From Deltaproteobacteria bacterium HGW-Deltaproteobacteria-14 (GTDB lineage Bacteria; Myxococcota_A; UBA9042; PHBI01), in contig PHBI01000012.1 of NCBI GenBank assembly GCA_002841945.1, positions 4,169 through 68,168 on the forward strand: a stretch of DNA of 64,000 nucleotides, given 5' to 3'. Below are positions 26,735-58,115 of the stretch, in pieces. The notes under the pieces were generated by a model that searched no databases, was not told the DNA's origin, and saw nothing but the letters and a program-made list of their open reading frames with translations. A program made the position numbers and the translations under genes. The number at the start of each line of letters is the position of its first letter. The first letter of the stretch is position 1.

Positions 26735-26740
26735 GATGTG

Positions 26741-27571: not shown

Positions 27572-27659
27572 GTCTACCCCCTCAGGAGCGCTGCGCTCTC
27601 GCGATGCTTGGGTCGATCCGGAGGGCCGCCCGCCACAGGGACAAGGGGGACCCGCCTGA

Positions 27660-27745
27660 GGACGCGTTACCGTAACGCGGCCCTCTGCGAAACGCCACAG
27701 GAACGTGAATCATGCCTGCGTTACGCCGGGCTGTAACTCACGTTT
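27660..27745. promoter_or_regulatory. Divergent promoter region with GTTAC/GTAAC palindromes, candidate operator(s).
   Basis: GCGTTAC-C-GTAACGC (7-bp arms) near 27665-27680. A second pair GCGTTAC-gccgggct-GTAACTC at about 27715-27740. TCATGCGC is directly repeated twice. Lies between the divergent starts at 27571(-) and 27828(+). Confidence 0.4.
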
Positions 27746-27827
27746 CATGCGCGCTATCATGCGCCGCGGTGCCTGCGGGGGGACCCCGAGGGCCCGTGGC
27801 GTGAGCCAGAGACGCTGGGAGCGAGCG

Positions 27828-29636
<1,809 letters not shown>

Positions 29637-29694
29637 CGCGCGAGCTTGCGCGTCGCGGCCAGCGCTGCTCGAGAGGGCAGGGGAGGTCGACGAG

Positions 29695-34534: not shown

Positions 34535-35441
34535 GGCGCACCCCGACCGAGAAGCGGAGCTCGCGGCGGTTGATCAGCAGCCCCTTGCCGTTGCCGGCGT
34601 CCAGCGACAGAAACGGCAGGAGCTCGCCGGCGTCACCGGGGAACGCGACGCCGAGGATCCCGCGCAAGAAGTAGCCCTCCGCGGCGCTGTCGTCGCTCGG
34701 GATGAGCCCCTCGAAGAAGAGGCGCGCGACCGGCTGCACCGACGCGCACGCCGCCCAGCGGACCCCGATCGCCAGGCTCGGTTGGTGGGCCAGCCCCTCG
34801 TCGAGGAAGGTCGCGACGTCCTGGGACTCCGCCCGCGCCCCGAACATCAGCGGCCAGCCGTTGGTGAAGATGCGGTCGGCGAGGCGCACGTTCACAACCC
34901 AGGCGTCTGCGAGGCGGAGGCGCCAGGCGACGTCCACGCCGAGCCACAGCCCGCCCCCACCGAACGGGATGTCCTCGGGACCGAAGGGCAGGTCCACGCG
35001 GTCCGACGCGGCGGCGACCAGCTCGCGCGAGCGCTCGACGCCGAGCTCGACCCCGATCTCGAAGGCGCCGCCTGCGCCGAAGACCGGCGTCATGTCGAAC
35101 GTGAAGGCGCCGCCGAGGGTGCCGACCACCCGGGCCAGCTCGTCGGGGAAGGCGCCCTTGGCGTGGGCGTCCTCGAGCGCCACGAGCCCGGACAGCGCCA
35201 GATGCACGCCGACGCCGACGCCGCCGTCGCCGTCCCCGGGCCACGTCACGAGGCCGAGGGTCTGGCCGAGAGACAGCTGCGCCCGCGGACCCCAGGCGTA
35301 CTCCAGCACCGGCGCGTCCCGCGACGCGGTGTCGGCGAGCGGGACGGCGCGCGTTACCCCGGGGAGCCAGGTCGGCGCTGCGTGGGCGGCCGCCGGGACG
35401 GCGCACGAGAGCGCCAGCAACGTCGCGGTCCAGCGCCTCAT
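34521..35441 (-). CDS. Secreted beta-rich protein, probably an outer-membrane beta-barrel. Hypothetical.
   Basis: The 648-aa track ORF 34521..36467 is split. The ATG at 35441 gives the signal peptide [22 protein letters not shown] plus 285 aa with alternating hydrophobic strands. ATGA overlap with the stop of 35438..36520. Confidence 0.65.
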   Translation of the reverse strand: MRRWTATLLALSCAVPAAAHAAPTWLPGVTRAVPLADTASRDAPVLEYAWGPRAQLSLGQTLGLVTWPGDGDGGVGVGVHLALSGLVALEDAHAKGAFPDELARVVGTLGGAFTFDMTPVFGAGGAFEIGVELGVERSRELVAAASDRVDLPFGPEDIPFGGGGLWLGVDVAWRLRLADAWVVNVRLADRIFTNGWPLMFGARAESQDVATFLDEGLAHQPSLAIGVRWAACASVQPVARLFFEGLIPSDDSAAEGYFLRGILGVAFPGDAGELLPFLSLDAGNGKGLLINRRELRFSVGVRHVFR

Positions 35442-36520
35442 TCGGGCCTCACGCGGGCGAAGAACGGGAAGTAGTACACCCCGTCGAGGGAGGCGGGGGC
35501 GTCGTCGAAGGCGCTCGGCACGTAGGTGACGACGAGGTCGCCGCCGCCGTCGAGCTCCGGGTGCGCCTTGGCGGCGTAGACGAACGCGCCGTCCCGGCTC
35601 GCCTCCGGCGGCCGAAACACGACCGTCGGTTCGCTCCACGGGCCCTCGAGGTCCGGCGCGGCCCGCCACACGACAGGCGCCGCGCCGAAGCCGCCGCTCG
35701 CCACCCACAGCCAGCGCTGCAGCGTCGCGTCGAAGTGCACCGAGAACTCCGGCGCCCCGGGCGAGAACAAGGTCGCGGGGGTGCAGTCGGTCGCCCAGCG
35801 CGCGCCCCCGCAGTACGCCTCTGGCGCCGACAGGTCTCCCGCCGCGGCCGCAGCCACCGTGAATCGCGCCAGCGTCACCGCGTGGCGGTCCCCAGAGGTC
35901 CCGTAGGCGTAGAGGTGGTCGCCGACGACGACGCACGCCTCGCCGAGCGCCCCGGAGATGGACGGCCCGCCCGCGGGCAGCGTCGCCGGGGTGATCACCC
36001 AGGCGCTGGGCGGATCGTCGGGGTTCGAGACCAGCGCCGCCGTCCAGCCGTCGCCGGCGAAGCTCCACGGCCCGGGCTCGCCCTCGTCGTGGAGCAGCTC
36101 GAAGAACAGCACGAGCGTGGCGCCGACCCGCGCCCCGTGCGCCGGCCACAGCCAGCTCGCGTCGCTCGGCTCGGGGAAGAACGAGCGCGGCTCGCCGTCG
36201 TCGGTGCGCCAATAGTGACGGACATAGGCGCTGAGCGGGTCGCGCCCGGTCTGCAGCGCCACGCTGTTGCGGAGGAAGGCCGCGCCCTGGTGCGGGCGCT
36301 CGCGGTCCCGCGCGACCAGGGTGTCGCCGAAGAGCCACAGCACGCGCTCGCCGCCGAGGTCGATGGAGTACGCGCCGTCGGCCCCGATGAAGCGCGCGTC
36401 GCGGTGAAAGAGCGCGTTCGCCTCGGGCCAGGCGGCGCCGCGGCCCGCGGGCGCCGGGTCCGTGCACGCCGCGCAGGTCGCGGCGATCAGGATCCCGGTG
36501 AACGCCCGCGCGCGGCGCAT
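35438..36520 (-). CDS. DUF4185-family lipoprotein, predicted beta-propeller glycosidase-like.
   Basis: Lipobox IAATCAAC. The motif [10 protein letters not shown] is characteristic of DUF4185. 360 aa. Lies 4 bp downstream of the pullulanase gene on the same strand. Confidence 0.7.
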
Positions 36521-36524: not shown

Positions 36525-40094
<3,570 letters not shown>

Positions 40095-40246
40095 GGCGAG
40101 ACTCTACACCGACGCCCACCGTTGACCATCCAAGAGTCACGGTTTTTCCCGCTCGCCCCGCTTGTCTTTGTCTCGAGGGCCGCGCTCTTCTATGCTCGGC
40201 GCCGTGGCGGGGCGTCCGGCCCCGCCCGTGCCCGCGTGGAGCCAAG

Positions 40247-42913
40247 ATGCGCTCGTCTCTCGTCGCCGTGTGCCCGCTCGTCCTCCTCCTCGTCGCGGCC
40301 GGCTGCGGTGACGACACGGTCGCGTCCCCTGACGGGGCCGGCGGCGACACGACCGTCACCTCGGACACCGCCATGGAGGAGGGCGACGGGGCGGTGGCCA
40401 CCGACACCCACGACGTGCTGGTGACGACCTGCCTCGCCCCCGAGGGCGCCGACCCGAGCGGGACCGATGTGCTGACCGACGACCTCGGCGAGGCCACCGT
40501 CAACGTCGCCGATCGCGACGCCTGCCACCGCACCTACACCCTGACCTCGACCGCGACCCGCCGCGACGACCTGCCGGCGTCTCCGCGGTCGGTCGTCGAG
40601 GAGGCGGGCTACCCGACCCTGCGCAGCGGCAACGACCTGCTCGACGCCCTGCACGCCCTCGCGCTCGCCGAGGCGCGCGAGAACATGGTCGACACCATCA
40701 CCGACGGCGCCTTCTCGCAGGGCGGCGCGACCTCCTGCGGCGACGGCGGCTGCTTCGAGACCGGGCGCAAGTGGACTTATGTCTGGACCCGCGACACCGC
40801 CTTCGCGGTCGATCTCGGGCTGGCCGCCGTCGATCCCGCCCGGGCGGCGAACTCGCTCCGCTTCAAGCTCTCCGCGCGGCGCTCGGGCGGCGACGTGCAG
40901 ATCGTGCAGGACACGGGCTCGGGCGGGAGCTACCCGGTCTCGAGCGATCGCGTCGCCTGGGCGCTCGGCGCCTGGACGCTGCTGCAGCAGCTCGACGGCG
41001 CGGCGCGCACGAGCTTCGGCGACGACGCCCGGGCGGCGATCACGAACACCCTCGAGCACGATCGCGCCGTCGTCTTCGACGTGGCGACCGGCCTCTACCG
41101 CGGCGAGACGTCGTTTCTCGACTGGCGCCAGCAGACCTACCCCGGCTGGACCGAGCTCGACGTCACCGACATCGCCACCAGCGCCGCGCTGAGCACCAAC
41201 GTGCTGCACCTGCGCGCCCTCGAGATCGCCGCCGCGCTGCACGCCGAGGCCGGCGACGACACCGCCGCCGCCCGCTACAGCGGCTGGGCGGACGCCCTGC
41301 GGACGGCCATCCACGACCGCCTCTGGGTCGAGTCCGACGGGCTCTTCGCGAGCTTCCTGCCCAGCACCCTCGATCCGGCGCCGGTCCACCGCTACGACCT
41401 GCTCGGCGAGGCCCTCGCGGTGCTCGCCGGCGTCGCCAGCCCCGACGAGGCGCGCCGCGTCCTCGCCGCCTACCCGAGCTACGGCCCCGGGACGCCGGTC
41501 ATCTGGCCGCAGCAGCAGAACATCTCCATCTATCACAACCGCGCCGAGTGGCCCTTCGTCGACGCCTACTGGCTGCGCGCCGCCGCGGTCGCCAAGAGCG
41601 ACGGCGTCGCCGACAAGATGGTGGCCGCGCTCGTGCGCGGCGCGGCGCTCAACCTGTCGAACATGGAGAACCTCGAGGCCTGGACCGGCGCCCCCTACGT
41701 CGAGGACGGGCTCTACTCGGGGCCGGTCGTGAACTCCCAGCGCCAGCTGTGGTCGGTCGGCGCCTTCCTCTCCATGGTGCACCGCACGCTGTTTGGCCTC
41801 GAGCCGACCCCGGAGGGCCTGAAGATCGCGCCCTACGTCACCCACGGCATGCGGCGGACGTGGTTCGCGGGCAGCGACGAGCTAGTGCTCAACGACTTCG
41901 CCTACCGCGGGCGCCGGGTGACCGTGGTGGTGAGCCTGCCGCCGCCGTCTGGGGCGTCGGCCGGCGGCTCGTACCGCGTTGCACAGGTGCGCCTCGACGG
42001 GCAGCTCGTCACCGAGCCGGTGATCGCGCCCGCGCGCCTCGCCGTGTCGAACCGGGTCGACGTCGCCCTCGAGGAGGACCCCGAGGCGGTCCCCACGACC
42101 GCGCGGGAGGTCGACGGGGCCGCCTGGCAGCAGGTCTTCGGGCCGCGGACCCCGCAGCTCAAGAGCGTCAGCGCCGTCGGCGACCGGCTCTCCCTCGAGC
42201 TCGGCCTCGGCGGCGAGGACCCGGCCGGGCTCCTGCTCCACGTCTATCGGGACGGCGTGCCGGTCGCGAGCGGGCTCCCCGCGACGACCAGCAGCTGGAC
42301 CGATCCCGACTCCGATCCAGCGGCGCCGACCTCGCCGTGCTACGCGGTCGAGGCGTCGTTCACCGCCAGCGGCAACCGCTCGCAGCACTCCCGCCCCGTC
42401 TGCTGGTGGGGGAGCTCCAACGCCGCGATCCAGACCGTCGACGCCGGGGCCTTCGAGGCGGTCGGGGGCGAGGCCGTCACGCAGTACGGGCGCTTCCACT
42501 ACCAGGAGTGGGGTGACGAGGGGGACACGCTGACGGCGCGCGGCTTGCACCCCGCGCGCACCGGGCCGGCGTGGCTCCAGGTGCGCTTCGGCAACGGCGC
42601 TGGGCCGATCAACACCGGCATCACCTGCGCGGTGAAGCGGGTGACGGTGTTCGACGAGGCGAGCGGCGACGAGGTGGGGGGCGGCGTGCTGGTGATGCCG
42701 CAGCTCGGCACCTGGGAGCGGTGGTCCTTGTCGACCTTCGTGCCGGTGACCCTGGACGCGGCGAAGAGCTACCGCGTCGTCATCTCCGGCGACGCGCGGA
42801 CGGTGAACATGTCGTTCTTCTCGCACTTCGCGCACTACAACGGCGGGACCGGCGGCAGCGACGGCCCGTTCGACCGCGTGAACATCGCCGAGCTGCGGAT
42901 CCTGGCCCGCTGA
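40247..42913 (+). CDS. (alpha/alpha)6-barrel glycoside hydrolase lipoprotein, GH15/GH63-like (glucoamylase / glucodextranase / debranching type), with a C-terminal beta-sandwich carbohydrate-binding-like domain.
   Basis: Lipobox LLLVAAGCGDD. KWTYVWTRDTAFAVDL resembles the GH15 YTWTRDS region. 888 aa. The C-terminal approximately 200 aa (...VTVFDEASGDEVGGGVLVMPQLGTWERWS...) look like a CBM-like beta-sandwich. Confidence 0.7.
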   Translation: MRSSLVAVCPLVLLLVAAGCGDDTVASPDGAGGDTTVTSDTAMEEGDGAVATDTHDVLVTTCLAPEGADPSGTDVLTDDLGEATVNVADRDACHRTYTLTSTATRRDDLPASPRSVVEEAGYPTLRSGNDLLDALHALALAEARENMVDTITDGAFSQGGATSCGDGGCFETGRKWTYVWTRDTAFAVDLGLAAVDPARAANSLRFKLSARRSGGDVQIVQDTGSGGSYPVSSDRVAWALGAWTLLQQLDGAARTSFGDDARAAITNTLEHDRAVVFDVATGLYRGETSFLDWRQQTYPGWTELDVTDIATSAALSTNVLHLRALEIAAALHAEAGDDTAAARYSGWADALRTAIHDRLWVESDGLFASFLPSTLDPAPVHRYDLLGEALAVLAGVASPDEARRVLAAYPSYGPGTPVIWPQQQNISIYHNRAEWPFVDAYWLRAAAVAKSDGVADKMVAALVRGAALNLSNMENLEAWTGAPYVEDGLYSGPVVNSQRQLWSVGAFLSMVHRTLFGLEPTPEGLKIAPYVTHGMRRTWFAGSDELVLNDFAYRGRRVTVVVSLPPPSGASAGGSYRVAQVRLDGQLVTEPVIAPARLAVSNRVDVALEEDPEAVPTTAREVDGAAWQQVFGPRTPQLKSVSAVGDRLSLELGLGGEDPAGLLLHVYRDGVPVASGLPATTSSWTDPDSDPAAPTSPCYAVEASFTASGNRSQHSRPVCWWGSSNAAIQTVDAGAFEAVGGEAVTQYGRFHYQEWGDEGDTLTARGLHPARTGPAWLQVRFGNGAGPINTGITCAVKRVTVFDEASGDEVGGGVLVMPQLGTWERWSLSTFVPVTLDAAKSYRVVISGDARTVNMSFFSHFAHYNGGTGGSDGPFDRVNIAELRILAR

Positions 42914-42988
42914 AGTCCCGCGAGCGCGGTCTCGGCGTTGCGTCGAACGGCCTCGCCGTGGACCATGGTGACGGACCCCAGCACGAGG

Positions 42989-45900
42989 ATGGCCATGCTC
43001 CGTCACGCGTCTATCGCGAGCCTCGCCGGTTTCGCGGCTATCGCGCTCCTTCTCAGCTGGGCGCCGCTCGCGCACGCCGAGGGGGTGTCGTGGACCGTGG
43101 ACTTCACCGGGGACGCCGTGGCGCCCGGCTGGACGACCACCCTCACCGGCGGCGCCCGGATCGCCCACGAGCGCGCCGAGGCGCGCGAGGTCGACCAAGG
43201 AGTCCGGCTCTCGCGCACCCTGCCGTCACCGATGGAGCGCATCGAGGTCCGCTTCGTCGGTGAGCTCCGCGACGCCGCACGCGGCTCGTCGCTCGCCCTC
43301 GTCTTGGCCGGCGCCGCTGGCGCGATTCGCCTCGATCATCAGCACGGGGGCGACGTCGCCCCGGGCCAGAGCGTCGTGCGGGTGACGCTCCCCGAGGCGG
43401 CCGGGCCCGTCGACACACCGTCGGACACCCACGCCGAGCGCTTCCCGAGCTACCTCCACGAGGTCGTGTTGAGCGGCCGCGCGCTGACGGTGACCGTCAC
43501 GGACCTGCGGACCGGGGCGGTCGTGGCGTCGCTCGCGCGCGCCGACGTCGGCCTGCCGGCGAACGCCGTGAGCCTGATCGCGCTCGCGGTCGCGCACGTC
43601 GATGGCCCAGGCGCCACCTGGCTCGACGACGTCCACGTCGATCTCGCGCCGTCGCCCCTCGTCGCCGCCGTGTGTGGCCCGGACGACCCACCCACGAGCG
43701 CGGACTGCGACGGCGCGTGCGACGCCGTCGACCTCCCTGGGAGCCCCGACTGCGACGGGCTGTGCGGGGCCAACGACGACTTCGTCAGCCCGGACTGCGA
43801 TCCGCAGTGGTACTGCAACCACTTCCCGGGCGGGCCGTGCGACGACGGCGACCCGTGCACGACCGACGACAGCTGCCGGGCCGGGTCGCAGTGCAAGGGG
43901 GACCCGCGGGACTGCTCGGCGCTGACCGACCCGTGCAACGGCGCCGTGTGCGACGAGGACGCCGGCTACTGCAAGCGGGTGCCGATCAACATCGGCGCCG
44001 CCTGCGACGACCAGAACCCGTGCACCGTCGACGACCACTGCGACGCGACCGGGGCGTGCGCCAGCGACCCGAAGGACTGCTCGACCTTCGATGACATCTG
44101 CAACTCCGGCAGCTGCAACCACCTCGGGGTGTGCGAGACCGAGCCGATCAACGAGGGTGGCCCGTGCGACGACCACGATCCGTGCACCGTCGGCGACCTC
44201 TGCAACGCCGCCGGGGGCTGCGCCGGCGCCGCCGTGGACTGCTCGGGGCTCGATGACGCCTGCGTCGAGGGCTACTGCGACGCGGCGGGGAGCTGCCGGA
44301 CGACGCCGGTCAACGGCGGCGGCCCGTGCGACGACGGCGACCCGTGCACCCTGCTCGACGCCTGCGGCGCGGACGGCGTCTGCGCGGGCGGCGAGAAGGA
44401 TTGCTCGTCCCTCGACGACGCGTGCCACCTCGGCGCGTGCGACGACGGCGGGGCCTGCGGGGCGACGCCGGCCAACGCCGGCGGCGCGTGCGACGACGGC
44501 GATCCCTGTACGATCGGCGATCTGTGCGACGCCGCCGGCGGCTGCGCCGGGACGCCGGTCGACTGCTCGGGCCTCGATGGCGCGTGCAAGGTCGGGCAGT
44601 GCAACGCGAGCGGGGCGTGCGTCGCCGCGGCGGCCAACGTCGGCGGCGCGTGCGACGACGGTGACCCCTGCACCCTCGGCGACGCGTGCGGCAACGGCGG
44701 CGTGTGCGTCGGGGCCGGGATCGACTGCTCGGAGCTCGACGACCCGTGCCACGCCGGGACCTGCGACGGCGCGGGGGGCTGCGTCGCGCTGACCGCCAAC
44801 GCGGGGGGCGCGTGCGACGACCTCGACCCCTGCACCCGCGACGACGTGTGCGCAGCGGACGGCAGCTGCGCCGGCGTGGCCGATGACTGCGCCGAGCTCA
44901 CGACCGCGTGCAGCGTCGGCATGTGCGACGCGCAGGGCGGGTGCGTCGGGGTGCCCGCCAACCTCGGCGGCGGCTGCGACGACGGTGATCCGTGCACGGT
45001 CCTCGATGCCTGCGGCGCGGACGGCGGCTGCGCTGGGGTGGCCAAGGACTGTAGCGGCCTCGACGACGCGTGCCACGTCGGGACGTGTGACGCGAGCGGG
45101 GCCTGCGTGGCGGCGCCGGCGAACCTCGGCGCGACGTGCGACGACGGGGACGGGTGCACCGTGAACGACCGCTGCGGGGCAGGCGGCGGGTGCGCCGGGT
45201 CGCCGCGCGACTGCTCGGGGCTCGACGACACCTGCCACGAGGGGACCTGCGAGGCGGCCTCCGGGACCTGCGTCGCGACCCCGGCGCGGGTCGGCGGGGC
45301 GTGCTCGGACGCGGACCCGTGCACCGTCACCGACGTCTGCGGCGCGGACGGGGTGTGCGCGGGGAGCGCCATCGACTGCGCCGTCTCCGAGAGCCCGATC
45401 TGCAACCTCGCCGCGTGCAACCCCCTGCGCGACCTCGACGGCGACGGGGTCATCGACACCGCCGACGGCGATCCGCAGGATCCCACCGCGTGCGCCGACG
45501 CCGACGCGGACGGCTGCGACGACTGCGCGCTGACCGGGCCGGACGGCTCGGGTGGGGACGTCGCCCGGGACGGGCCGGACGCGGACGCCGACGGGGCCTG
45601 CGACGTCGGCGACGATGACGATGACGGCGACGGGATCGACGACGACGACGAGGCGGCTGCCGGCTCCGATCCGTACGACGCCGACACCGACGGGGACGGG
45701 CTCGCCGACGGGGACGAGGTCGCTGCGGGGACGAGCCCGGTCGATGTGGACAGCGACGACGACGGCCTGTCGGACTCCGACGAGCTCAGCGGCGGCGGGC
45801 GGCTCGCGCCCTGGGGCGCGACCGATCCGACCGATCCGGACAGCGACGGCGACGGGCTGCTCGACGGCCTCGAGGTGGGGGTGACGGCGCCGATCCCGGG

Positions 45901-46258
45901 GGGGCACCTGAGCGTCGGCCCGGCGCCGGTCGAGGCGCGCGGCACCGATCTCGACCGCGGCGTCTTCCGGGCCGACGCCGACCCGTCGTCGATCACCGAC
46001 CCGACCTCGGTCGACACCGACGGCGGCACCGTCCCCGACGGGATCGAGGACGTGAACCGCGACGGGGCCGTCGACCACGGCGAGCGCAACCCGGTGGACC
46101 CGACCGACGACGTCCCGGTGGTCACGACGCCGAAGGACGGCGGCGGGTGTGCAGGCGCAGGCGGGCAGGGCGCCGCGGGCGCGCTGGCGCTGGCGCTGCT
46201 GGCGCTCGCGGCGACGCGGAGGCGCCTGGCTCGCGTCCGCCGCTCGCGCTCCCGCTAG
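42989..46258 (+). CDS. Large cell-surface protein with about 11 myxococcal cysteine-rich repeats, thrombospondin-type-3-like Asp-rich calcium-binding repeats, and a MYXO-CTERM-like sorting tail.
   Basis: Signal MAMLRHASIASLAGFAAIALLLSWAPLAHA. The start is uncertain; 42938 and 42965 are alternatives. Repeats of the form DCSxLDDxCxxGxCDxxGxCxxxPxNxGGxCDDGDPCTxxDxCGxDGxCAG. Asp-rich segment DxDGDGxxDxxD. C-terminus GGGCAGAGGQGAAGALALALLALAATRRRLARVRRSRSR. Confidence 0.85.
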   Translation: MAMLRHASIASLAGFAAIALLLSWAPLAHAEGVSWTVDFTGDAVAPGWTTTLTGGARIAHERAEAREVDQGVRLSRTLPSPMERIEVRFVGELRDAARGSSLALVLAGAAGAIRLDHQHGGDVAPGQSVVRVTLPEAAGPVDTPSDTHAERFPSYLHEVVLSGRALTVTVTDLRTGAVVASLARADVGLPANAVSLIALAVAHVDGPGATWLDDVHVDLAPSPLVAAVCGPDDPPTSADCDGACDAVDLPGSPDCDGLCGANDDFVSPDCDPQWYCNHFPGGPCDDGDPCTTDDSCRAGSQCKGDPRDCSALTDPCNGAVCDEDAGYCKRVPINIGAACDDQNPCTVDDHCDATGACASDPKDCSTFDDICNSGSCNHLGVCETEPINEGGPCDDHDPCTVGDLCNAAGGCAGAAVDCSGLDDACVEGYCDAAGSCRTTPVNGGGPCDDGDPCTLLDACGADGVCAGGEKDCSSLDDACHLGACDDGGACGATPANAGGACDDGDPCTIGDLCDAAGGCAGTPVDCSGLDGACKVGQCNASGACVAAAANVGGACDDGDPCTLGDACGNGGVCVGAGIDCSELDDPCHAGTCDGAGGCVALTANAGGACDDLDPCTRDDVCAADGSCAGVADDCAELTTACSVGMCDAQGGCVGVPANLGGGCDDGDPCTVLDACGADGGCAGVAKDCSGLDDACHVGTCDASGACVAAPANLGATCDDGDGCTVNDRCGAGGGCAGSPRDCSGLDDTCHEGTCEAASGTCVATPARVGGACSDADPCTVTDVCGADGVCAGSAIDCAVSESPICNLAACNPLRDLDGDGVIDTADGDPQDPTACADADADGCDDCALTGPDGSGGDVARDGPDADADGACDVGDDDDDGDGIDDDDEAAAGSDPYDADTDGDGLADGDEVAAGTSPVDVDSDDDGLSDSDELSGGGRLAPWGATDPTDPDSDGDGLLDGLEVGVTAPIPGGHLSVGPAPVEARGTDLDRGVFRADADPSSITDPTSVDTDGGTVPDGIEDVNRDGAVDHGERNPVDPTDDVPVVTTPKDGGGCAGAGGQGAAGALALALLALAATRRRLARVRRSRSR
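43890..45420 (+). repeat. Tandem coding repeats of about 135 bp each, roughly 11 copies, encoding the cysteine-rich repeat units.
   Basis: Period of about 45 aa visible in the translation. Recurring DNA blocks such as gcgtgcgacgacggcgacccgtgcacc. Confidence 0.8.
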
Positions 46259-46260
46259 AC

Positions 46261-48060
46261 CTATCGCAGGGCGACGAAGGCGAAGCCCCGCGCCCCGAGG
46301 GGGGGCACGGTGATGGCGCCCGCGCGCGTGGCGAAGGGGCCGGTGACGCCCTCCGAGAACAAGAGCCTCGGGACGCCGGTCACCGGCGCGTCGAAGGCCT
46401 CGCTGGGCTCGCGGTCGAGGTTCACGACGACCAACACCCGCTCCCCGGCCGCCTCGCGGACGAAGGCCACGCTGCCCTTGCCGCCGGTGACCTCGAGCCG
46501 CCGCTGGGTCCCCCAGCGCAGCGCCGGGTGGGCGTGTCGCAGCGCAATAAGACGGCGGTAGAGGCTCAGCAGTGAGCCCTCGTCCTTGAGTTGCGATGCA
46601 ACATCGACGACGCCGGCCTCGTCCGGGACGGCGAACCACGGGGTGCCGGTCGTGAAGCCCACCCCCGGGGTCTCCTTGGTCCAGCGCATCGGCGTGCGCT
46701 TGTTCTCGTCCGCGCCGCTCTCGCCGCCCTGCATCCCGATCTCCTCGCCGTAGTACATGAAGGGCGTCCCCTCCCAGGCCATCAGCAGCGCCGCGGCGAG
46801 GCGCATCCCGGCGGCGTCCCCGTCGAGCTGCCGCATCACCCGGGGCATGTCGTGGTTGGTCAAAAACGGCGCCTCGAAGCCCGGATCCGCGGCGAAGACG
46901 GTGGCCGCCTTGTCGAGCATCTGGTTGAGGTCGGAGCGCACGCCGTCCTTCACCGCCGCGCGGATCTTGTCCGCGGTGTTGAAGGAGAAGCCGAGGTGAA
47001 ACTCGTCACCGTCGCCGTAGTAGAGCACCTGGTCCTCGGCGCCGCTCCACGCCTCGGCGACGATCACGGCGTCCGGGTGCTCGGCGTCGAGCACCTTGCG
47101 AAAGCGCTTCAAGAACGGGTGGTTACCCTCGAAGTCCGCGACCTTGCCCTCGGGCCCCTCGAAGAGGTGGCGCACGGCGTCGACCCGGAACCCGTCCTGC
47201 CCGCGGTCGAGCCAGAAGCGCGCCGCGTGCATCATCGCGTCCTCGACCTCGGAGTCGCCGAGGTTCAGGTCGGGCATCTCGCTCCAGAAGATCGCGTAGT
47301 AGTACCAGTCGCCGAGCTGGTGCCAGACGGGCGACCCGTCCCACGGTCGCTTCCACCCCTTGGGCGGCGTCTTGACCCAGCTGTAGAACGCGCGCTTGGC
47401 CGCGTCCGGGCCCGCCTTGGCGTCGAGGAACCACGGGTGCTGGCTCGAGCTGTGGTTGAGCACGAAGTCGGTGATGATCCGGATCCCGCGCTGATGCGCG
47501 GCGGCGATGAGCTTGTCGTAGGTGGCGAGGGTCCCGTAGTCGGGGTTGATCCCCTCGTAGTCCGTCACGTCGTAGCCGTGGTAGCTCGGCGACGGGTTGA
47601 TGGGCATCAGCCACAGCGCGTCCACGCCGAGGTCGTTGCCGCCGCTCGGGTCGCCGTCGTTGAGGTAGTCGAGCTTGTCGATGAGCCCCTGGAGGTCGCC
47701 CTTTCCGTCGCCGTCGGAGTCCGCGAAGCTGCGCACGAAGATCTCGTAGAACACCGCCCCGCGCCACCACGGTTGGGCCGGCGGCGCGGCGGTCGCGGTC
47801 GTGTCGGCCGGCTCGAGGGCGAGCGCCGCGTCCGCGACGGCCACGGCCGGCGTCGCCGCGTCGGCCTCCGGGGCGGGCGCGACGGTCTCGAGGGCGGGGG
47901 CCGCGGTCGCCTCGGGCGGCGGCGTCCGGACCGGCGGCTTGTCGCCTTCGCTCTTGCATGAAGAAGTGGCGAATAGGGTGGCGATGGCGAGTGCAGAAGC
48001 CGTTATTGCGCGATTCGCAACTGCGACATGGTCGCGCGTCGTGCCACGAGCAGCGTTCAT
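46261..48060 (-). CDS. GH13 alpha-amylase-family lipoprotein of the alpha-glucosidase / cyclomaltodextrinase / oligo-1,6-glucosidase type.
   Basis: Start trimmed to ATG 48060 with RBS GGAGGA. Signal ...AITASALAIATLFATSSC. GH13 regions WRGAVFYEIFVRSFADSDGDGKGDLQG, YHGYDVTDY, IRIITDFVLNHSS and GFRVDAVRHL. Its stop lies 2 bp from the stop of the convergent surface-protein gene. Confidence 0.85.
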   Translation of the reverse strand: MNAARGTTRDHVAVANRAITASALAIATLFATSSCKSEGDKPPVRTPPPEATAAPALETVAPAPEADAATPAVAVADAALALEPADTTATAAPPAQPWWRGAVFYEIFVRSFADSDGDGKGDLQGLIDKLDYLNDGDPSGGNDLGVDALWLMPINPSPSYHGYDVTDYEGINPDYGTLATYDKLIAAAHQRGIRIITDFVLNHSSSQHPWFLDAKAGPDAAKRAFYSWVKTPPKGWKRPWDGSPVWHQLGDWYYYAIFWSEMPDLNLGDSEVEDAMMHAARFWLDRGQDGFRVDAVRHLFEGPEGKVADFEGNHPFLKRFRKVLDAEHPDAVIVAEAWSGAEDQVLYYGDGDEFHLGFSFNTADKIRAAVKDGVRSDLNQMLDKAATVFAADPGFEAPFLTNHDMPRVMRQLDGDAAGMRLAAALLMAWEGTPFMYYGEEIGMQGGESGADENKRTPMRWTKETPGVGFTTGTPWFAVPDEAGVVDVASQLKDEGSLLSLYRRLIALRHAHPALRWGTQRRLEVTGGKGSVAFVREAAGERVLVVVNLDREPSEAFDAPVTGVPRLLFSEGVTGPFATRAGAITVPPLGARGFAFVALR

Positions 48061-48209
48061 GGGTCCTCCGGTGCGCGGGGCTCCCGTCCAACGCCAGCTA
48101 CTCGTTGCGGCGGCGGCCCGACGACGGCATGGTGTCGCGAGGTTGGGCGGGACGCAACCGATCTCCACGCGGCGGGTCGCGTCGAGGGAACCCTGGTCGG
48201 AGGCTGACG

Positions 48210-49799
48210 ATGCGCGGGCAGTTCACACTCTTCTTCACGGCGCCCGGGCGCCGCTTGGCCCTCGCGGCGCTGCTGGCGCTAGCGGGCTGTGGCTCGGACC
48301 CTGCGGTGCCGGCAGACACCGGCGTCGACAGCGTCGGCAGCGACACGGCCGACGGGACGAGCGCCGACACCGCGACGCCCATCGGCGACGAGACCTACTT
48401 CCCGGTCCCCCCGCCGGCCGGGCCGGTCCCGGAGTCGCTCACCGGCGCCCGCTGGGCCGTCCACTACACCGACGACGTCGCCCCCTTCTGGACCGCGGCC
48501 GAGGCGCTCGGGACGCCGGTCGGGAACTTCCCGACCTATCGCGGGATGGACGGCCGGGTGCTGCCGAGGAGCGAGCGCCGCCCGCGCATGATCTCGCGCC
48601 AGATCCTCGGTTACGCGCTCGGCTACCTGCTGACGGGGGACGTGCAGCTGCTCGAGCACGCGCAGGCGGGGTCCGACTGGCTGCGCGCCCACGCCATCGA
48701 CCGCACCAAGGGCGGCTGCCGCGAGCTGCTCAACGTCGACGGCGGCGACGTCGGCTCGGTGCGGACCGCGCAGGACCTGTCCTATTGCATGACCGGGCTG
48801 GCGGCGCTCTTCTTCGTGACCCGCGACCCGGCGCTCGAGGCTGACCTCGAGTCCGCTCGCGGCTGGCTCTTCGATCCCGCGAAGTACTGGGACGCCGACA
48901 ACGACCGGATCCGCGACGGGCTGGCGGCGGACATGTCCACCGAGGTGGACGTGGACAACGACGGTGGCTGGGAGCTCGTCGCGCAGCTCGACCCGGTCAA
49001 CGCCTTCATGCTGCTCGCGCAGCCGGTGATGTCGACGCCTCAGGCGCGCGAGCGCTTCCTGACCGGCCTCCGCACCCTCGTGCAGACGATGGTCGACGAC
49101 TTCCGCCAGGACGGCCTCTTCTGGGGTGTGTCGACGAACAAGGGCAAGTACGGCACCAAGCACGTCGACTGGGGGCACATCCTCAAGAGCTACTGGATGG
49201 TCCTGCAGGTGGACAAGCGCCTCGCCGACCACCCGTTCCACGACGTCGTCTTCGACCAGGTCTACACCCTCGTCGACCGCGCCTACGACGCCGACAACGG
49301 GCGCTGGTCCAAGCGCCCGACCAGCGCGACCAACGTCGAGTACGGCAGCGACTGGTGGATCTACGCCGAGGAGGACCAGCTCGCGGCGACCCTCGACCTC
49401 ATCGACCACCGCTACACCGAGACCCTGGCCGCGACCGCCGGTCACTGGCTGAGCGACTACGTAGACGGGGCCTACGAGATCGGCGAGATCATCCCCGGGA
49501 TCAAGCGCGACGGCTCGCCGGTCTGGACCTGGCCGGCGACCGACAGCGCCAAGTGCAACGAGTGGAAGAACGCCTTCCACTCGAGCGAGCATGCGCTCGT
49601 GATGGGGCTCCTCGGGCAGTACCGCGACGACGGCGAGGTGGAGCTGCACTTCGCCGTGCCCGCGGCCGACGTCGAGACCTTCATCGCGAAGCCCTACACC
49701 TTCGAGGGCCGCGTCGTCGCGCGCCAGGCCGGCGAGACCTTCACCCTCGGCGGCCGCGAGCTGACCAAGGTCACGGTGACCTTCACCGACATCTACTGA
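48210..49799 (+). CDS. Lipoprotein with a D/T-rich linker. Hypothetical; possibly an (alpha/alpha)6-like carbohydrate-active fold.
   Basis: Start trimmed to ATG 48210. Signal MRGQFTLFFTAPGRRLALAALLALAGCGSDP followed by DTGVDSVGSDTADGTSADT. 529 aa, rich in aromatic residues. No motif confidently recognised. Confidence 0.65.
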   Translation: MRGQFTLFFTAPGRRLALAALLALAGCGSDPAVPADTGVDSVGSDTADGTSADTATPIGDETYFPVPPPAGPVPESLTGARWAVHYTDDVAPFWTAAEALGTPVGNFPTYRGMDGRVLPRSERRPRMISRQILGYALGYLLTGDVQLLEHAQAGSDWLRAHAIDRTKGGCRELLNVDGGDVGSVRTAQDLSYCMTGLAALFFVTRDPALEADLESARGWLFDPAKYWDADNDRIRDGLAADMSTEVDVDNDGGWELVAQLDPVNAFMLLAQPVMSTPQARERFLTGLRTLVQTMVDDFRQDGLFWGVSTNKGKYGTKHVDWGHILKSYWMVLQVDKRLADHPFHDVVFDQVYTLVDRAYDADNGRWSKRPTSATNVEYGSDWWIYAEEDQLAATLDLIDHRYTETLAATAGHWLSDYVDGAYEIGEIIPGIKRDGSPVWTWPATDSAKCNEWKNAFHSSEHALVMGLLGQYRDDGEVELHFAVPAADVETFIAKPYTFEGRVVARQAGETFTLGGRELTKVTVTFTDIY

Positions 49800-49850
49800 G
49801 GATGACCGCACGCCGGGAGCGCGCGGTCGGGATGACCGCGCGCTGGGAGG

Positions 49851-50480
49851 TCAGTCGAGGTACAGGCCGCCGGTCGACTCGAGCCAGTCGGCGATCTCGT
49901 CGGCGGCCTGGGCGGGGTCGAGGTCGGAGACGTCGAGCTCGAGGTGGTCGAGCAGCGAGGCGCGGACGACATCGCGCAGGCGCTCCTGCTCGGCGATGAA
50001 GTAGCCGATGTCGTCGTACTGAGCCGGGTTGCCGCTGACCTTCAGGCGCTGCGTCCGGGCGGCCTCGAAGGTCTCGGGTCGGCGGGTCAGGAGCACGACG
50101 CGGAAGTTCAGGGCGCGCAGGCGCCGCTCGAGGTCGGTGAAGTCGTACTCGACGCCGTGGGTGTGGTGCTGGAACGCCTTCGCCGAGAGGTGGAAGCGGT
50201 CGATGATCCACGAGTAGTAGCGCTGCAGCTCGAAGAGCCGCGCCCAGGTGGCGTAGGCCTCCATCGCGCGGAACGCCTCGTCGGGCGCGAAGTTGATGAG
50301 CCCGCGCCCCCAGGGGTGGTTCGTGAAGCCACACCACTCGCCGCTGATGATCGGCGAGTGATAGCGGTACTTGCGCGGGCCCACGATCCGCGGGTGCTCG
50401 TTGAGCGCGAAGGCCGTGTCCGTCTTGAAGGTCAGGCGTGTGCCTTCGAGGATCACCTTCGGGACGAGCTTCCGACCCAT
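49851..50480 (-). CDS. Hypothetical cytoplasmic protein at the tail of the mal-like operon.
   Basis: 209-aa ORF with protein-like composition. Lies 4 bp downstream of the membrane-protein gene. Weak resemblance to sulfotransferase-like proteins, not supported by motifs. Confidence 0.55.
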   Translation of the reverse strand: MGRKLVPKVILEGTRLTFKTDTAFALNEHPRIVGPRKYRYHSPIISGEWCGFTNHPWGRGLINFAPDEAFRAMEAYATWARLFELQRYYSWIIDRFHLSAKAFQHHTHGVEYDFTDLERRLRALNFRVVLLTRRPETFEAARTQRLKVSGNPAQYDDIGYFIAEQERLRDVVRASLLDHLELDVSDLDPAQAADEIADWLESTGGLYLD

Positions 50481-51087: not shown

Positions 51088-51951
51088 TCACCCCTTTACG
51101 CCGCCGGAGGTGAGGCCGCCGACGAGGTTCTTTTGCAGTGCGAAGAAGAGCGCCATGATCGGGATCGAGACGATGATGGACGCCGCGGCGAACTTGCCCC
51201 ACTCGACCGACTGCTCGCCGACGTAGCTGTAGACGGTCACCGGGAGGGTGAACGCCGTGGGCTCTTCCATGAACGTGAAGGCGAGGACGAACTCGTTCCA
51301 CGCGGTCATGAACGAGAACAGCGCCGTGACGGCGACGGCCGGCATCGAGAGCGGCAGGATGATACGCCAGAAGATGGTGAACTGGCTGGCGCCGTCCATG
51401 ATGGCGCTCTCCTCGAGGTCCTTCGGGATGGTGTCGAAGTAGCCCTTGAGCATCCAGACGCAGAACGGGATGGCGATCGTGGCGTAGACGACGACGAGGC
51501 CGAAGGAGGCGTTGAGGAGGCCGAGGGCCTCGAGGATGAGGTAGAGCGGCACCATCATCAGCACGCCGGGGAACATCTGGCTGACGAGGAAGGCCATGAG
51601 GCCCGCCTTGCGCCCCGGGAAGCGGAAGCGGCTGAAGGCGTAGGCGGCGGTGGTCGCCAAGAAGATGCCGAGCACCGTCGTGGCGATGGCGATGACCGCG
51701 GAGTTCAGCAGCTGGCGGCCGAAGAGCCAGTCGCCCTGGGCGCTGGTGTTGGTGACGACGGCCACGAAGTTGTCGAGGCTGAGCTCGCGCGGGATCGGGT
51801 TGAGCGACGGGCTCATGCCGGAGTCGCCCGGCGAGAACGCGATGCGCATCACGATGAGGAGCGGATACATCGTGACCAGGGTCACGGCTCCGAGGACGCC
51901 GTGGGTCGCGATGCTGCCCCAGGGGCTCCTGCGAGTGGTCGCGGTGCTCAT
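51088..51951 (-). CDS. malG: Maltose/maltodextrin-type sugar ABC transporter permease, MalG-like.
   Basis: The 603-aa track ORF is trimmed to the ATG at 51951, which gives MSTATTRRSPW.... EAA loop DLEESAIMDGAS. Six TM segments. ATGA overlap with the malF-like stop. Confidence 0.9.
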   Translation of the reverse strand: MSTATTRRSPWGSIATHGVLGAVTLVTMYPLLIVMRIAFSPGDSGMSPSLNPIPRELSLDNFVAVVTNTSAQGDWLFGRQLLNSAVIAIATTVLGIFLATTAAYAFSRFRFPGRKAGLMAFLVSQMFPGVLMMVPLYLILEALGLLNASFGLVVVYATIAIPFCVWMLKGYFDTIPKDLEESAIMDGASQFTIFWRIILPLSMPAVAVTALFSFMTAWNEFVLAFTFMEEPTAFTLPVTVYSYVGEQSVEWGKFAAASIIVSIPIMALFFALQKNLVGGLTSGGVKG

Positions 51952-53630
51952 TCGAAGGCCCCCTCGGTCGCCCTGGTGATTCGATTCTGCATCCAGCCGT
52001 ATATCAGCAGCATCACGAAGATGAGCAGCGAGTAGGCGGCTGCCAGACCGAAGCGGTTGAGGACCTTGAAGGCGTAGTAGGCCTCGGTGATCAGGATGTT
52101 GGTCTCGTTCTCGGGGGCGCCGCCGCTCACGAGGTAGATGACGTTGAACATGTTGAACGTCCAGACGACGCCCAGGATGACCGCGGGGATGAGGGCCGGC
52201 TTCAGCAGCGGCAGGGTGACCGTGCGGAAGCGCTGCCAGCGGCCGGCGCCGTCGATGTCGGCGGCCTCGTAGAGCTCCTTCGGGATGGACTGGAGCGCGC
52301 CGAGGGTGACCACCATCATGAACGGGAAGCCGAGCCAGGCGTTGGTCGTCAGGTTCGCCATGAAGTTCGAGGCGAAGCTCGAGCCGGGGCCGATCCAGTT
52401 GACCTGGTCGACGCCGATCACGTCGAGGAGCGAGTTCACCGCGCCGTACTGCTGGTTGAACATCGACTTCCAGATGAGCGCCGTGATGTAGTTCGGGACC
52501 GCCCACGGGATGATGAGCAGCACCCGGTAGAGCGTCTTGAGCCGGAGCTTCGGGCGGTTCAACACCAGCGCCAGGGCGACGCCGATGGAGACGTGGAGGA
52601 GGACGTTGAGGACCGTCCACAGGATGGTGACCGACGTCGTCCAGTAGAAGTTCGGGTGGGTCGTGGCGCTCGGGTTCAGGATCTCCTGGAAGTTCCCGAG
52701 CCCGGTGAAGTCGCCGTCCTTCGAGAAGAAGGCGATGGCGACGCCCATGGCGAAGGGGATGAAGACGAGCACGATCATCCCGAGCATCGCCGGGACGACG
52801 TAGACGTAGGTGCGCGGCTGCTCGCGGACCCCGCGGAAGACGCTCGCCATGCCCGAGATGGACGCCGCCCCGAGGGCGAAGCCGACCAGACCCGGCCACG
52901 CGACGAGCGCGCTCTCCTGGCCGAGGAAGGTCAGCGCGATCGGGATCGCCGCCGCCGCGCCGTGGGCCAGGCGGCGCCGGCCGCCGGTGAGGTAGGAGGC
53001 CGCGACGCCGAGCAGCGCCGCGAGCGCGAGCATGAGCAGGAGCTGCGACGTCGGGGTGCTGGGGGCGGGGTTGGGCACGCGCACGATCACGTGCGCTATG
53101 CCCTCGAAATTGCCGTCCTTGGCGACCTGGGCGGTCGCGGAGAAGGCGTTGTCGGTGTCGCTCAGCTTGACGACGCTGAAGCGACGGTCCTTCGGGATGG
53201 GCTGGTGCTTGGAGAAGTAGTCCTGAAGCTCCGCCGACCGGTTGAGCAGCCCCTGGGCGACGACCTCGGGATCGGCGTTGACGACGCCGGCGTCGATCAC
53301 GCGCTTGCCGGCGACCTCGGAGCCGACGGCGATGCCGAAGTCATCGGTCCCGCCGCTGGTCACGACGTAAGCAGCCGCGACGCCGTCGGGGAGCTGCTCG
53401 ACGGCGCTCGGACCGGCGGCGGCGACGCGAGCGGCGAGGTCGTCGGCGAGCGCGCCGACCCTCGTCTCGACGGCGCGTCGGTGGTCCCGTGCGTCGTTGT
53501 AGCGGGTCAGCCCGAGGACCGATCCGGCGACGACCACGACGATCAGGGCGGTCGCCAGCCCGTCGGAGACGCGCGCGTAGGGCCTCGCCTTCGGTCCACA
53601 GTAGGGTGCTTGGCCCGCGTCGAAAGCCAT
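51948..53630 (-). CDS. malF: Maltose/maltodextrin-type sugar ABC transporter permease, MalF-like, with an N-terminal extension.
   Basis: 560 aa. BPD-transporter permease domain with an EAA-like loop (KELYEAADIDGAGRWQRFRTVTLPLL). The N-terminal approximately 260 aa carry a TM helix plus a periplasmic region. Confidence 0.9.
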   Translation of the reverse strand: MAFDAGQAPYCGPKARPYARVSDGLATALIVVVVAGSVLGLTRYNDARDHRRAVETRVGALADDLAARVAAAGPSAVEQLPDGVAAAYVVTSGGTDDFGIAVGSEVAGKRVIDAGVVNADPEVVAQGLLNRSAELQDYFSKHQPIPKDRRFSVVKLSDTDNAFSATAQVAKDGNFEGIAHVIVRVPNPAPSTPTSQLLLMLALAALLGVAASYLTGGRRRLAHGAAAAIPIALTFLGQESALVAWPGLVGFALGAASISGMASVFRGVREQPRTYVYVVPAMLGMIVLVFIPFAMGVAIAFFSKDGDFTGLGNFQEILNPSATTHPNFYWTTSVTILWTVLNVLLHVSIGVALALVLNRPKLRLKTLYRVLLIIPWAVPNYITALIWKSMFNQQYGAVNSLLDVIGVDQVNWIGPGSSFASNFMANLTTNAWLGFPFMMVVTLGALQSIPKELYEAADIDGAGRWQRFRTVTLPLLKPALIPAVILGVVWTFNMFNVIYLVSGGAPENETNILITEAYYAFKVLNRFGLAAAYSLLIFVMLLIYGWMQNRITRATEGAFE

Positions 53631-53641
53631 CGTGGTCGCCC

Positions 53642-55021
53642 CTACTTGCCGCGCTTGGCGATGTCGTCGACCATCTTGGCCTGGGCCTTCTTCAGCTCGG
53701 CGGCGGGGTCGCGGTCGGCGACGAAGATGCCCGCCGAGATCGCGATGTCAGCCGGGGTCCACAGGAGCTGCATCTCGGGGGTCGCGTCCATCAGGACGGC
53801 GTTGCTGGCCTGCTCGAGGAAGACCTTCATGGTCGGGTCCTCGGCGGCGCCGGCCTCGAGGGTCGCCTGGTGGCAGACGGGCTGCTTGCCCTCGCGCATC
53901 CGGACGCCCGCGGAGTCAGCGCCGGCGAGGTACTTGGCGGCCTCGAGGGCGGCCTCCTTCTTCTTGGAGGTCTTGGTCACGAAGATCGCCTCGATGCCGA
54001 GCATCGGCTTCGGCACGCGGCCGTCGGCGAAGGGCGGGATGGTCGCGATGCCGTAGTCCATGCCCTCGGCGATCTCGGGGCGGAACCAGGGGCCGTTGAA
54101 GACGAAGGGCGCCTTGTGCTCGTTGAAGAGGCTCGTGACCATGAAGCCCGAGATGCCCTTCGCCACGATCTTGTCGTCCATGTGGAGCTTGCGGACGAAC
54201 TTCAGGGCGGCCAGCTGCTCGGGGGTGTCGAAGGCGGGGACGTGCGCGTCGTCGAAGATGCGCCCGCCGAAGGCGTAGATCCACATGGCGTGGAAGTAGA
54301 GCCCGCCGGCCTGGTACACGATGCCCTGGCGGTCGCCGGTGAGCAGCTCCTTGGCCTTGGCGATGAGCTCCTCCATCGTCTTCGGGGGCTCGGGGACGAG
54401 GGTCTTGTCGTAGAAGAGCACCAGCGACTTCATGGCCAGCGGGAGCCCGTAGAGGTTCTTGCGGTAGACGAGCGCCCGGACCGACTCGGGCAGGAACTGC
54501 TTGAGGGTGTCGCCCTCGATCTTGCCCGACAGGGGCTCGAGCACGCCCTGCTCGACCCAGTTGCCGATCATGTTGTGGGCGAAGATGAACAGGTCGGGAC
54601 CCTGGCCGCGCGGGACGGTGATGGTGACCTTGTCCACGAAGGGGTCGTAGGGGACCGCCTGGGAGCGGACGTGGATCTTGTTCTGCGAGGCGTTGTACTG
54701 GTCGACGACCTTGTCGAACGCGGCGGCCTCGCCGGCGCGGTAGGCGTGCCACAGGACGATCTCGACCGGCTCGCCGGCGGCGGGCGCGGGGGCGGCGGTC
54801 GCCGTGTCAGCCTCGGCCGGGGCCGGGGTGGCGGCGTCGGCCTCGGCGGCCGTCGGGGTGACGGCGTCGGCTTCGGCCTCGGCCGGGGCGGGGGTGGTGG
54901 CCGGCGGCGCGGCCGTCGCGGGAGCCGGCGGGCTGTCCTTCTCGCCGCAGCCTGCGGTCAGCAGCAGCGCGGCGCCGAGAGCGGCGAGGTGGAAGAGGTG
55001 GCTCTGGTGGCGCTCAAGCAT
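53642..55021 (-). CDS. malE: Maltose/maltodextrin-binding protein, MalE-family solute-binding lipoprotein.
   Basis: Lipobox [10 protein letters not shown] plus a Pro/Ala-rich linker. [33 protein letters not shown] and [19 protein letters not shown] match the MalE family. Overlaps the malK end by 8 nt. Confidence 0.9.
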
Positions 55022-56135: not shown

Positions 56136-56331
56136 GACCGCGCCATCCTGACACAGTCCCCAGGGGCGGGGAAGGGGACCGGGGCGGAGATCACGGAGAT
56201 CTCGGCGGTTCAGCCAGCCCTACGGCGCAAAGTGTGCGCTGGTGCGGCTCACCGGCCGAACGCGCTGCGTCGCAATTCCACGACAATCAGGACCCACGGG
56301 GTCCGCTTTCCGCGCGGCCCGGGATCAGATT

Positions 56332-57957: not shown

Positions 57958-58115
57958 GCGCGGTCCGCCACGGTTACGGCTCTCCCGACGGCGTGCGCGC
58001 ATCTCGAACCTCCAGCGCGCGAGTGTACCAAAGCTAGCTCGGCGCCGTCCGGGACTCTTCCTGCGCCGGGCGGTCGTGTCTAATGTCCGCCGGTGCGCCA
58101 GCGACGGAGGCCAGC

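Follow-up and report, generated by a model that had tools for sequence, protein, structure and literature searches.

The DNA stretch analysed here (the window) comprises 64,000 nucleotides of a metagenome contig from Deltaproteobacteria bacterium HGW-Deltaproteobacteria-14 (GenBank contig PHBI01000012.1, positions 4,169 to 68,168). Inside an alpha-glucan locus of this window a plus-strand gene at 42995..46258 encodes a product of 1087 amino acids (aa) that is very probably anchored at the cell surface and carries a lectin-fold head on a stalk. From the N-terminus it is made up of a putative Sec-type signal peptide, the head, a Cys/Asp-rich linker, an array of ten Cys-rich units, an Asp-rich region and a MYXO-CTERM sorting tail. 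The whole chain of function proposed for it, in which a stalk-borne head binds glycan at the surface and may capture alpha-glucan for the lipoprotein enzymes of the locus, is put forward tentatively, and a role specific to starch is doubtful. No description of this type of protein or of its head-domain family was found in the searchable literature; in the databases its relatives are labelled 'hypothetical' or 'PEP-CTERM sorting domain-containing'.

The gene was identified from the list of open reading frames (ORFs) of the window, which contains one long plus-strand ORF at 42938..46258. The plus-strand frame 42914..46258 has a G+C fraction at third codon positions (GC3) of 0.95 by codon-position analysis, which is typical of coding sequence in this window of 72% GC. 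At this base composition (∼72%) long ORFs arise on both strands; overlapping long minus-strand ORFs (43226..46639 and others) were rejected as high-GC artefacts with a GC3 pattern unlike that of coding sequence. The coding sequence (1087 aa plus stop) is further supported by the database protein P0001 (1087 aa, start ATG 42995), which matches the product except at one residue, and by the ratio of nonsynonymous to synonymous substitution rates (dN/dS) calculated against two orthologs. This ratio is about 0.2–0.35, which indicates purifying selection in all domains, and it is probably an overestimate because codon bias lowers dS. The preliminary description of the locus had placed the start at ATG 42989, which is in frame. 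ATG 42995 is more likely to be the start, since a Shine–Dalgarno-like GAGG (42985..42988, plus strand; identified by inspection only) lies 6 nt before it, the database gene call begins there and the aligned Met is the first residue of the ortholog from the metagenome-assembled genome 'Deltaproteobacteria bacterium M1802'. P0001 originates from a metagenome contig (ENA ERZ27239242 k141_34098; L001) that was compared with the window over 21,910 bases, of which two differ. One is position 46227 (T in the window, C in L001), where Leu replaces Pro near the Arg-rich end of the sorting tail (RRRLARV in the window, RRRPARV in L001); the other is position 54895 (T in the window, G in L001).

The product contains 91 Cys and 172 Asp residues. 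Its signal peptide, MLRHASIASLAGFAAIALLLSWAPLAHA|EG (42995..43075, plus strand), was recognized by inspection of the translation with cleavage at AHA|EG; it has no lipobox Cys and is poorly conserved between the orthologs (27–43% identity).

The N-terminal head (aa 28–222; 43076..43660, plus strand), which the preliminary description had overlooked, is the part of the protein most informative for function. By sequence it has no match in Pfam, including the Pfam lectin models, in NCBIfam or in the PDB, and a search of the PDB with a profile of the head gave none either. An exhaustive HMMER search of 1.84 billion representative sequences returned ten matches: one ortholog, five stand-alone proteins and four fusions. 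The stand-alone proteins are ∼235–263 aa long and have PEP-CTERM-type tails, three of the five passing the Pfam PEP-CTERM gathering score; the fusions carry PKD, RTX, CARDB, Big_2 or TSP_3 modules. The head thus belongs to a rare family outside Pfam whose members are all extracellular. Word-indexed protein searching misses head-domain sequences, even the source protein itself, and its negative results are unreliable here. In an alignment of 11 sequences Trp19, Arg33, Glu35, Ser71, Phe123, Thr181, Trp182 and Asp184 are invariant, and Glu121 and Asp185 are nearly so. With this alignment as input AlphaFold2 gave a model of the head with a predicted local distance difference test score (pLDDT) of 93.3 and a predicted TM-score of 0.89; with the single sequence as input the pLDDT was 40. 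The best Foldseek matches to the model are noncatalytic lectins and carbohydrate-binding modules (CBMs). Its structural neighbours include lectin domains of SraP and Aap, two adhesins of Gram-positive bacteria, and the bean alpha-amylase inhibitor is among the top matches (1viw_B, 1dhk_B). Sequence identity to the closest solved structures is only 4–16%. According to the model, the head has a ConA-like/L-type lectin fold, this being an assignment of fold and not of family membership. The possibility that the head is a paralog of a domain in a neighbouring enzyme was rejected after a phmmer search against all window proteins (best E value 0.12).

The head is joined to the array by a Cys/Asp-rich linker (aa 223–275; 43661..43819, plus strand) containing three ∼15 aa '(S)PDCDG.C' mini-repeats, with seven Cys before the first core of the array. 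The mini-repeats match no known family. This linker is the most conserved segment of the protein, with 79–91% identity and a dN/dS of 0.11–0.25 between orthologs.

The array (43820..45430, plus strand) was delimited using Tandem Repeats Finder (TRF), the spacing of the Cys residues and identity matrices, and consists of ten Cys-rich units of 54–55 aa (162 bp) each. The preliminary description had counted about 11 near-identical 135 bp repeats at 43890..45420, bounds that are close to those found here without being exact. TRF reported periods of 162 bp (7.5 copies, 71% matches) and 324 bp (72% matches), and its output for the array contains no period of 135 bp. The Cys spacing is strictly periodic, with the series 6,6,6,7,7,5,6,11 occurring ten times over. 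Units 1–9 contain eight Cys each and the degenerate unit 10 contains seven; the four Cys per repeat originally proposed apply to the half-units of ∼27 aa, two of which make up each unit. The 20 half-units are of two alternating types, A with a DPCT core and B with an LDDAC.G.C core, so that A plus B gives the 54 aa unit. Each unit opens with a C[DS]D..[PG]CT core, which is carried by ten of the 20 half-units, and the DDGDPCT-type core named in the preliminary description is indeed present in the translation. DNA identity between units averages 66% (range 55–78%) and protein identity 54% (maximum 74%); the longest exact DNA match between units, found once, is 26 bp.

In the region 44159–45364 TRF scores the 324 bp (two-unit) period above the 162 bp period, and the identity matrix shows two groups of units that most resemble one another, one of units 4, 6 and 8 and one of units 3, 5 and 9. 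This pattern suggests that the middle of the array grew by ancient duplication of two-unit blocks.

All three orthologs have exactly ten units in positional correspondence, and all 91 Cys columns are kept although the proteins share only ∼70% identity. Orthologous units are 69% alike, compared with 50% for paralogous units, so concerted evolution has not taken place. Judged by the divergence of the units, the constant number of ten in all three orthologs and the conserved Cys residues, the array is an old, constrained and stable structural module. All but one of the 91 Cys are extracellular and separate from the anchor motif, 79 of these 90 being in the ten units; 90 is an even number, so that complete pairing is possible. 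By analogy, the ten units most likely form a disulfide-locked stalk.

The sole repeat family matched by the array is Pfam PF00526 (Dicty_CTDC), at 16.5 bits with the full protein and at 17.6 bits (E value 0.003, eight stretches) with the repeat segment alone; the gathering score of this model is 27, so that the protein lies below the curated line. The general layout of PF00526, with tandem modules of ∼24–27 aa that have four Cys and a C-D-D-x-x-x-C-T-x-D-x-C core, is found in the array, which differs from it in its lower score and in having two alternating types of module. The array yielded 1619 matches at 35–50% identity, from Myxococcota, Planctomycetota, Binatia and others. One of these relatives, P0014, passes the Dicty_CTDC threshold at 37.6 bits and many hold precomputed PF00526 matches. 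The array is therefore probably related to Dicty_CTDC at a sub-threshold level. The repeat had been described as the Myxococcus cysteine-rich repeat, an assignment that finds no support: no Cys-repeat model of NCBIfam/TIGRFAM, including TIGR02232 and TIGR04201, matched the full protein or the repeat segment alone at E ≤ 10. A search of the PDB sequences with the whole protein gave no significant match, and the Dicty_CTDC repeat itself has neither a known function nor a solved structure. The relatives of the array carry many different end domains and tails, and MYXO-CTERM-like tails were present in only some of the top 120. Since such varied end domains occur in more than 100 array-bearing proteins, the array behaves as a generic spacer module.

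The array is followed by an Asp-rich region (45431..46129, plus strand; 27% Asp) with four Cys and about seven DxDxDG motifs, which corresponds to bacterial thrombospondin type-3 (TSP3) repeats. Pfam PF18884 (TSP3_bac) scores 27.2 bits with the full protein and 34.4 bits with the segment, above its gathering score of 25; the calcium-binding-type repeats of the preliminary description were thereby confirmed, and the segment probably binds calcium, as far as its motifs allow this to be predicted. The model of CglD (NF033765), an adventurous-gliding lipoprotein of Myxococcus xanthus, was the single NCBIfam model reported for the full-length protein; it scores 65.5 bits (full protein) and 70.2 bits (segment) over profile positions 205–430 of 1124. 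CglD and the surface protein have the bacterial TSP3 region in common, but only this part aligns, the scores are far below the cut-off of 400 and the surface protein has no lipobox; an orthologous relationship to CglD was therefore rejected.

The C-terminus (46130..46255, plus strand) has the tripartite plan of a MYXO-CTERM sorting tail, with a Gly-rich Cys motif (GGGC), a hydrophobic helix and an Arg-rich end; it reads GGGCAGAGGQGAAGALALALLALAATRRRLARVRRSRSR and is accompanied by the signal peptide. The tail had been recognized before (GGGCAGAGG...ALALALLALAATRRR), and the assignment holds: when the last 50 residues were scanned alone both curated models passed their cut-offs, TIGR03901 with 23.1 bits (cut-off 20, E value 7e-5) and TIGR03382 with 16.9 bits (cut-off 15.85). 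Neither model was listed in the full-length scan, in which the HMMER filters probably drop them owing to the biased composition of the protein. Both orthologs carry equivalent tails. MYXO-CTERM proteins occur by the dozen in myxobacterial genomes, and a genome that encodes them is expected to have type II secretion and a matching myxosortase (MrtX, of the CPBP family). Domain scans gave no CPBP protease among the window genes that they covered, the window being 64 kb of the metagenome contig.

The order of parts in the surface protein is identical to that in TraA (MXAN_6895), the M. xanthus receptor for kin recognition and outer-membrane exchange, which has a signal peptide, a lectin-like beta-sandwich head, Cys-rich repeats and a MYXO-CTERM tail (PMC3325183). 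The Cys-rich repeats of TraA (TIGR04201), which were noted to resemble PF00526, were proposed by the same authors to form a rigid stalk (PMC3325183). The two proteins differ in several respects. The head of the surface protein is ConA-like/L-type, belongs to an unrelated rare family and has no PA14 match; its repeats are Dicty_CTDC-like and have no TIGR04201 match; an additional TSP3 segment lies between stalk and anchor; and the gene is located in a starch locus and not with traAB. The protein is thus TraA-like in layout without being a member of the TraA family. TraA is the prototypic MYXO-CTERM protein for which sorting to the surface was demonstrated by experiment, its tail being cleaved by the myxosortase MrtX for surface display (PMC11980579).

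From these parts the following mechanism can be proposed. The protein would be exported by its Sec signal peptide, the MYXO-CTERM tail would be cut by a myxosortase and the invariant Cys would then attach the protein to the outside of the cell, as in TraA. Cleavage and anchoring are probable by this analogy, being predicted from the curated MYXO-CTERM models together with the published TraA experiments (PMC11980579). The TSP3 segment next to the anchor would bind calcium near the membrane, the 90 non-anchor Cys would pair into disulfides so that the ten units form a stiff stalk, and the lectin-fold head at the tip would bind a glycan. Judged solely by gene context, the ligand would be an alpha-glucan (starch, glycogen or pullulan) or a particle bearing it, and polymer or granules would be held near the surface, within reach of the enzymes. 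Alpha-glucan is taken as the most likely ligand because of the adjacent glycosidase lipoprotein, the lipoprotein amylases, the pullulanase, the GH57/CBM20 protein and the MalEFGK-type transporter (where GH denotes glycoside hydrolase families).

These genes belong to an alpha-glucan locus of ∼40 kb (15984–56219) that encloses the surface-protein gene, in agreement with its earlier placement in a starch locus between a 'GH15-like' hydrolase and a convergent GH13 gene. The upstream neighbour (40247..42913, plus strand), the former 'GH15-like' hydrolase, encodes an 888 aa six-hairpin glycosidase-like lipoprotein with the lipobox LLLVAAGCGDD; its matches to MGH1-like_GH (24.5 bits) and Bac_rhamnosid6H (22.5 bits) are both sub-threshold. 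It is on the same strand as the surface-protein gene and is separated from it by 81 bp. Promoter and terminator scans of 40000–50000 gave no sites, the promoters covered being those of the sigma-70 type, and the two genes are probably co-transcribed. Downstream lies a convergent GH13 alpha-amylase-family gene (46261..48168, minus strand; Pfam Alpha-amylase 317.6 bits), to which the database gene call assigns 599 aa and an end at 48060. As stated in the preliminary description, only 2 bp separate the stop of the surface-protein gene (46258) from the end of the GH13 ORF (46261).

The remainder of the locus comprises genes for a GH13 enzyme with Glucodextran_C (15984–18716), a stand-alone Glucodextran_C protein (26741–27709), a second GH13 enzyme (27660–29636), a GH57 enzyme with CBM20 (29620–33132), a pullulanase (36525–40094), a 529 aa lipoprotein of unknown family (48210–49799) and MalG, MalF, MalE and MalK-type transporter components (51088–56219). 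Two DUF4185 genes (33500–34573 and 35438–36520, minus strand) lie between the GH57 and pullulanase genes, with a 306 aa gene without a Pfam match between them (within 33500–36520, minus strand); the pullulanase gene of M1802 is likewise adjoined by a DUF4185 gene. In most of the enzymes of the locus a lipobox is followed by an Asp/Thr-rich linker. A C-G-[GDS]-D lipobox occurs in the GH13 enzyme at 15984, the GH57/CBM20 enzyme, the pullulanase, the six-hairpin glycosidase-like protein and the 529 aa protein, with linkers such as DTADTADTADTA. The surface-protein gene is the only one in the locus with a MYXO-CTERM tail. Three large genes without Pfam matches occupy 20164–26740 (minus strand), between glucan genes. 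The 640 aa product of one (24818–26740) has a signal peptide, ends in ...SLEVGW and resembles an outer-membrane beta-barrel; a 522 aa product of the same group has a lipobox. The three genes might serve the locus in uptake. Just past the MalK-like gene, a minus-strand gene at 56425–58146 encodes a CotH kinase-family protein (143.9 bits).

Two independent comparison genomes were available in the collections searched; the loci L002 and L003, both carrying the M1802 ortholog, are the same DNA (100% identical) and were counted once. The M1802 ortholog (P0002; SBGO01000509.1) is 70% identical to the surface protein, and an ortholog on a JGI metagenome contig (L004) is 72% identical with the same architecture. 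Any two of the three genomes are separated by roughly the same distance (dS 0.6–0.7). In M1802 a block consisting of the genes for DUF4185, pullulanase, the glycosidase-like protein, the surface protein, GH13, the 529 aa protein and MalG is colinear with the window, with protein identities of 58–91%. An additional 411 aa gene without a Pfam match is present there (L003 ∼15200–16450), between the genes for a 530 aa lipoprotein and a 209 aa protein. On L004 a divergent TetR gene and a gene for a short-chain dehydrogenase lie ahead of the ortholog. Of the two comparisons available, one thus preserves the linkage with glucan genes. The suggestion that the gene had co-evolved with its locus receives partial support, from M1802, which keeps the whole block, and not from L004. 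Among the features on which the preliminary description had staked its account, the sorting signal is matched by profile models, the repeat assignment is not, and synteny with glucan genes holds in M1802 and fails in L004, which counts in part against that account.

Several points weigh against capture of alpha-glucan as the function. A lectin fold is no proof of sugar binding, as the same fold also serves GH16 enzymes, alginate lyases and the bean alpha-amylase inhibitor. To our knowledge the starch-binding modules described so far are immunoglobulin-like (Ig-like) sandwiches and not ConA-like, so that an alpha-glucan ligand would be unusual for this head. Its distant relatives are located outside carbohydrate loci. 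With 70% identity to the M1802 ortholog, the surface protein is among the less conserved members of the shared block (others 58–91%). Finally, nothing on the 6.4 kb L004 contig resembles any gene of the window, and no glucan gene is present on it.

In the main alternative the protein is a general adhesin or a TraA-type receptor for cell–cell or cell–matrix recognition that binds glycans of its own cells, of prey or of exopolysaccharide and plays no particular part in starch use, its linkage with starch genes in two genomes being incidental. This is rather unlikely. The layout of head, stalk and MYXO-CTERM tail is that of TraA, the ortholog on L004 lies outside a glucan context and the fold neighbours include the lectin domains of SraP and Aap. 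These two and YwfG resemble the surface protein in presenting an N-terminal lectin head on the long repetitive stalk of a cell-anchored protein, although the L-type lectins in general (SraP, Aap, YwfG, ERGIC-53/VIP36 and the legume lectins) are only 7–14% identical to the head and no Pfam lectin model recognizes it. PEP-CTERM proteins are generally linked to exopolysaccharide-producing bacteria, and the relatives of the head are mostly PEP-CTERM proteins, none of them in a carbohydrate locus. Incidental linkage is countered by the arrangement of the genes: the surface-protein gene lies 81 bp 3' of a glycosidase gene on the same strand with no terminator-like site predicted between them and only 2 bp from the stop of the GH13 gene, and the block has remained colinear at a dS of ∼0.6, which is more than random linkage usually leaves.

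The preliminary description had proposed a surface scaffold on which the lipoprotein enzymes would dock, in the manner of cohesin and dockerin. The length and modularity of the protein, in which each of the ten similar units could bind a partner, the similar Asp/Thr-rich linkers of the neighbouring lipoprotein enzymes and the resemblance of the TSP3 calcium motifs to dockerin-type calcium loops would suit such a role. Yet no docking module or related sequence was recognizable in the neighbouring enzymes (the phmmer search with the head mentioned above gave a best E value of 0.12), no enzymes are encoded near the L004 ortholog and the array recurs in over 100 unrelated proteins of several phyla without starch enzymes, which fits a generic spacer better. 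A scaffold is accordingly considered improbable.

It is about equally improbable that the head is catalytic or inhibitory, acting as a tethered glycanase or lyase of GH16 or polysaccharide lyase type or as a lectin-like alpha-amylase inhibitor. Such a role is suggested by the bean alpha-amylase inhibitor among the top Foldseek matches and by the acidic residues of the family, with Glu35 and Asp184 invariant and Glu121 and Asp185 nearly so. Against this, the best fold matches are noncatalytic, inspection of the family alignment shows no ExDxxE strand motif of GH16 and identity to any enzyme or inhibitor is 8–13%, the inhibitor match reflecting the legume-lectin fold only. The idea of a contingency locus, in which recombination between near-identical 135 bp units would alter copy number and stalk length as the preliminary description had expected, is largely refuted and extremely improbable: TRF does detect a tandem array, but its units are only 55–78% identical in DNA and share an exact match of 26 bp at most, once, all three ∼70%-identical orthologs have ten units and orthologous units are closer (69%) than paralogous ones (50%).

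For a surface protein that captures alpha-glucan, a functional comparison can be made with SusD, SusE and SusF of Bacteroidota, which are lipid-anchored, noncatalytic outer-surface proteins of starch loci that hold the polymer near the amylases. The job proposed here for the surface protein would be the same by analogy. There is no kinship in sequence or fold: the surface protein is anchored at its C-terminus (MYXO-CTERM) instead of by an N-terminal lipobox, and it has a ConA-like head whereas the Sus proteins have Ig-like starch-binding modules or the TPR-like SusD fold. In the strongest version of the proposal the head would found a new family of alpha-glucan-binding CBMs and the protein would be a myxobacterial counterpart of the Sus surface glycan-binding proteins; this is unlikely as matters stand. 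If true, a Gram-negative phylum would have solved the capture of starch at the surface independently, and a MYXO-CTERM receptor of TraA layout would for the first time have a physiological role other than in social behaviour.

As regards the repeats, Dicty_CTDC-like modules are widespread in Myxococcota and Planctomycetota, and the array belongs with these and not with the Myxococcus-specific repeat; with its units as diverged as they are, the gene represents neither an assembly risk nor a phase-variable locus. The protein pairs a TraA-type layout with a different, uncharacterized lectin-fold head, and its genomic setting provides a testable ligand, alpha-glucan. If the head does not bind starch, the protein would be one more modular adhesin of unknown ligand; if it does, it would define a new family of binding modules, and Gram-negative bacteria would have a further, new means of retaining polysaccharide at their surface.

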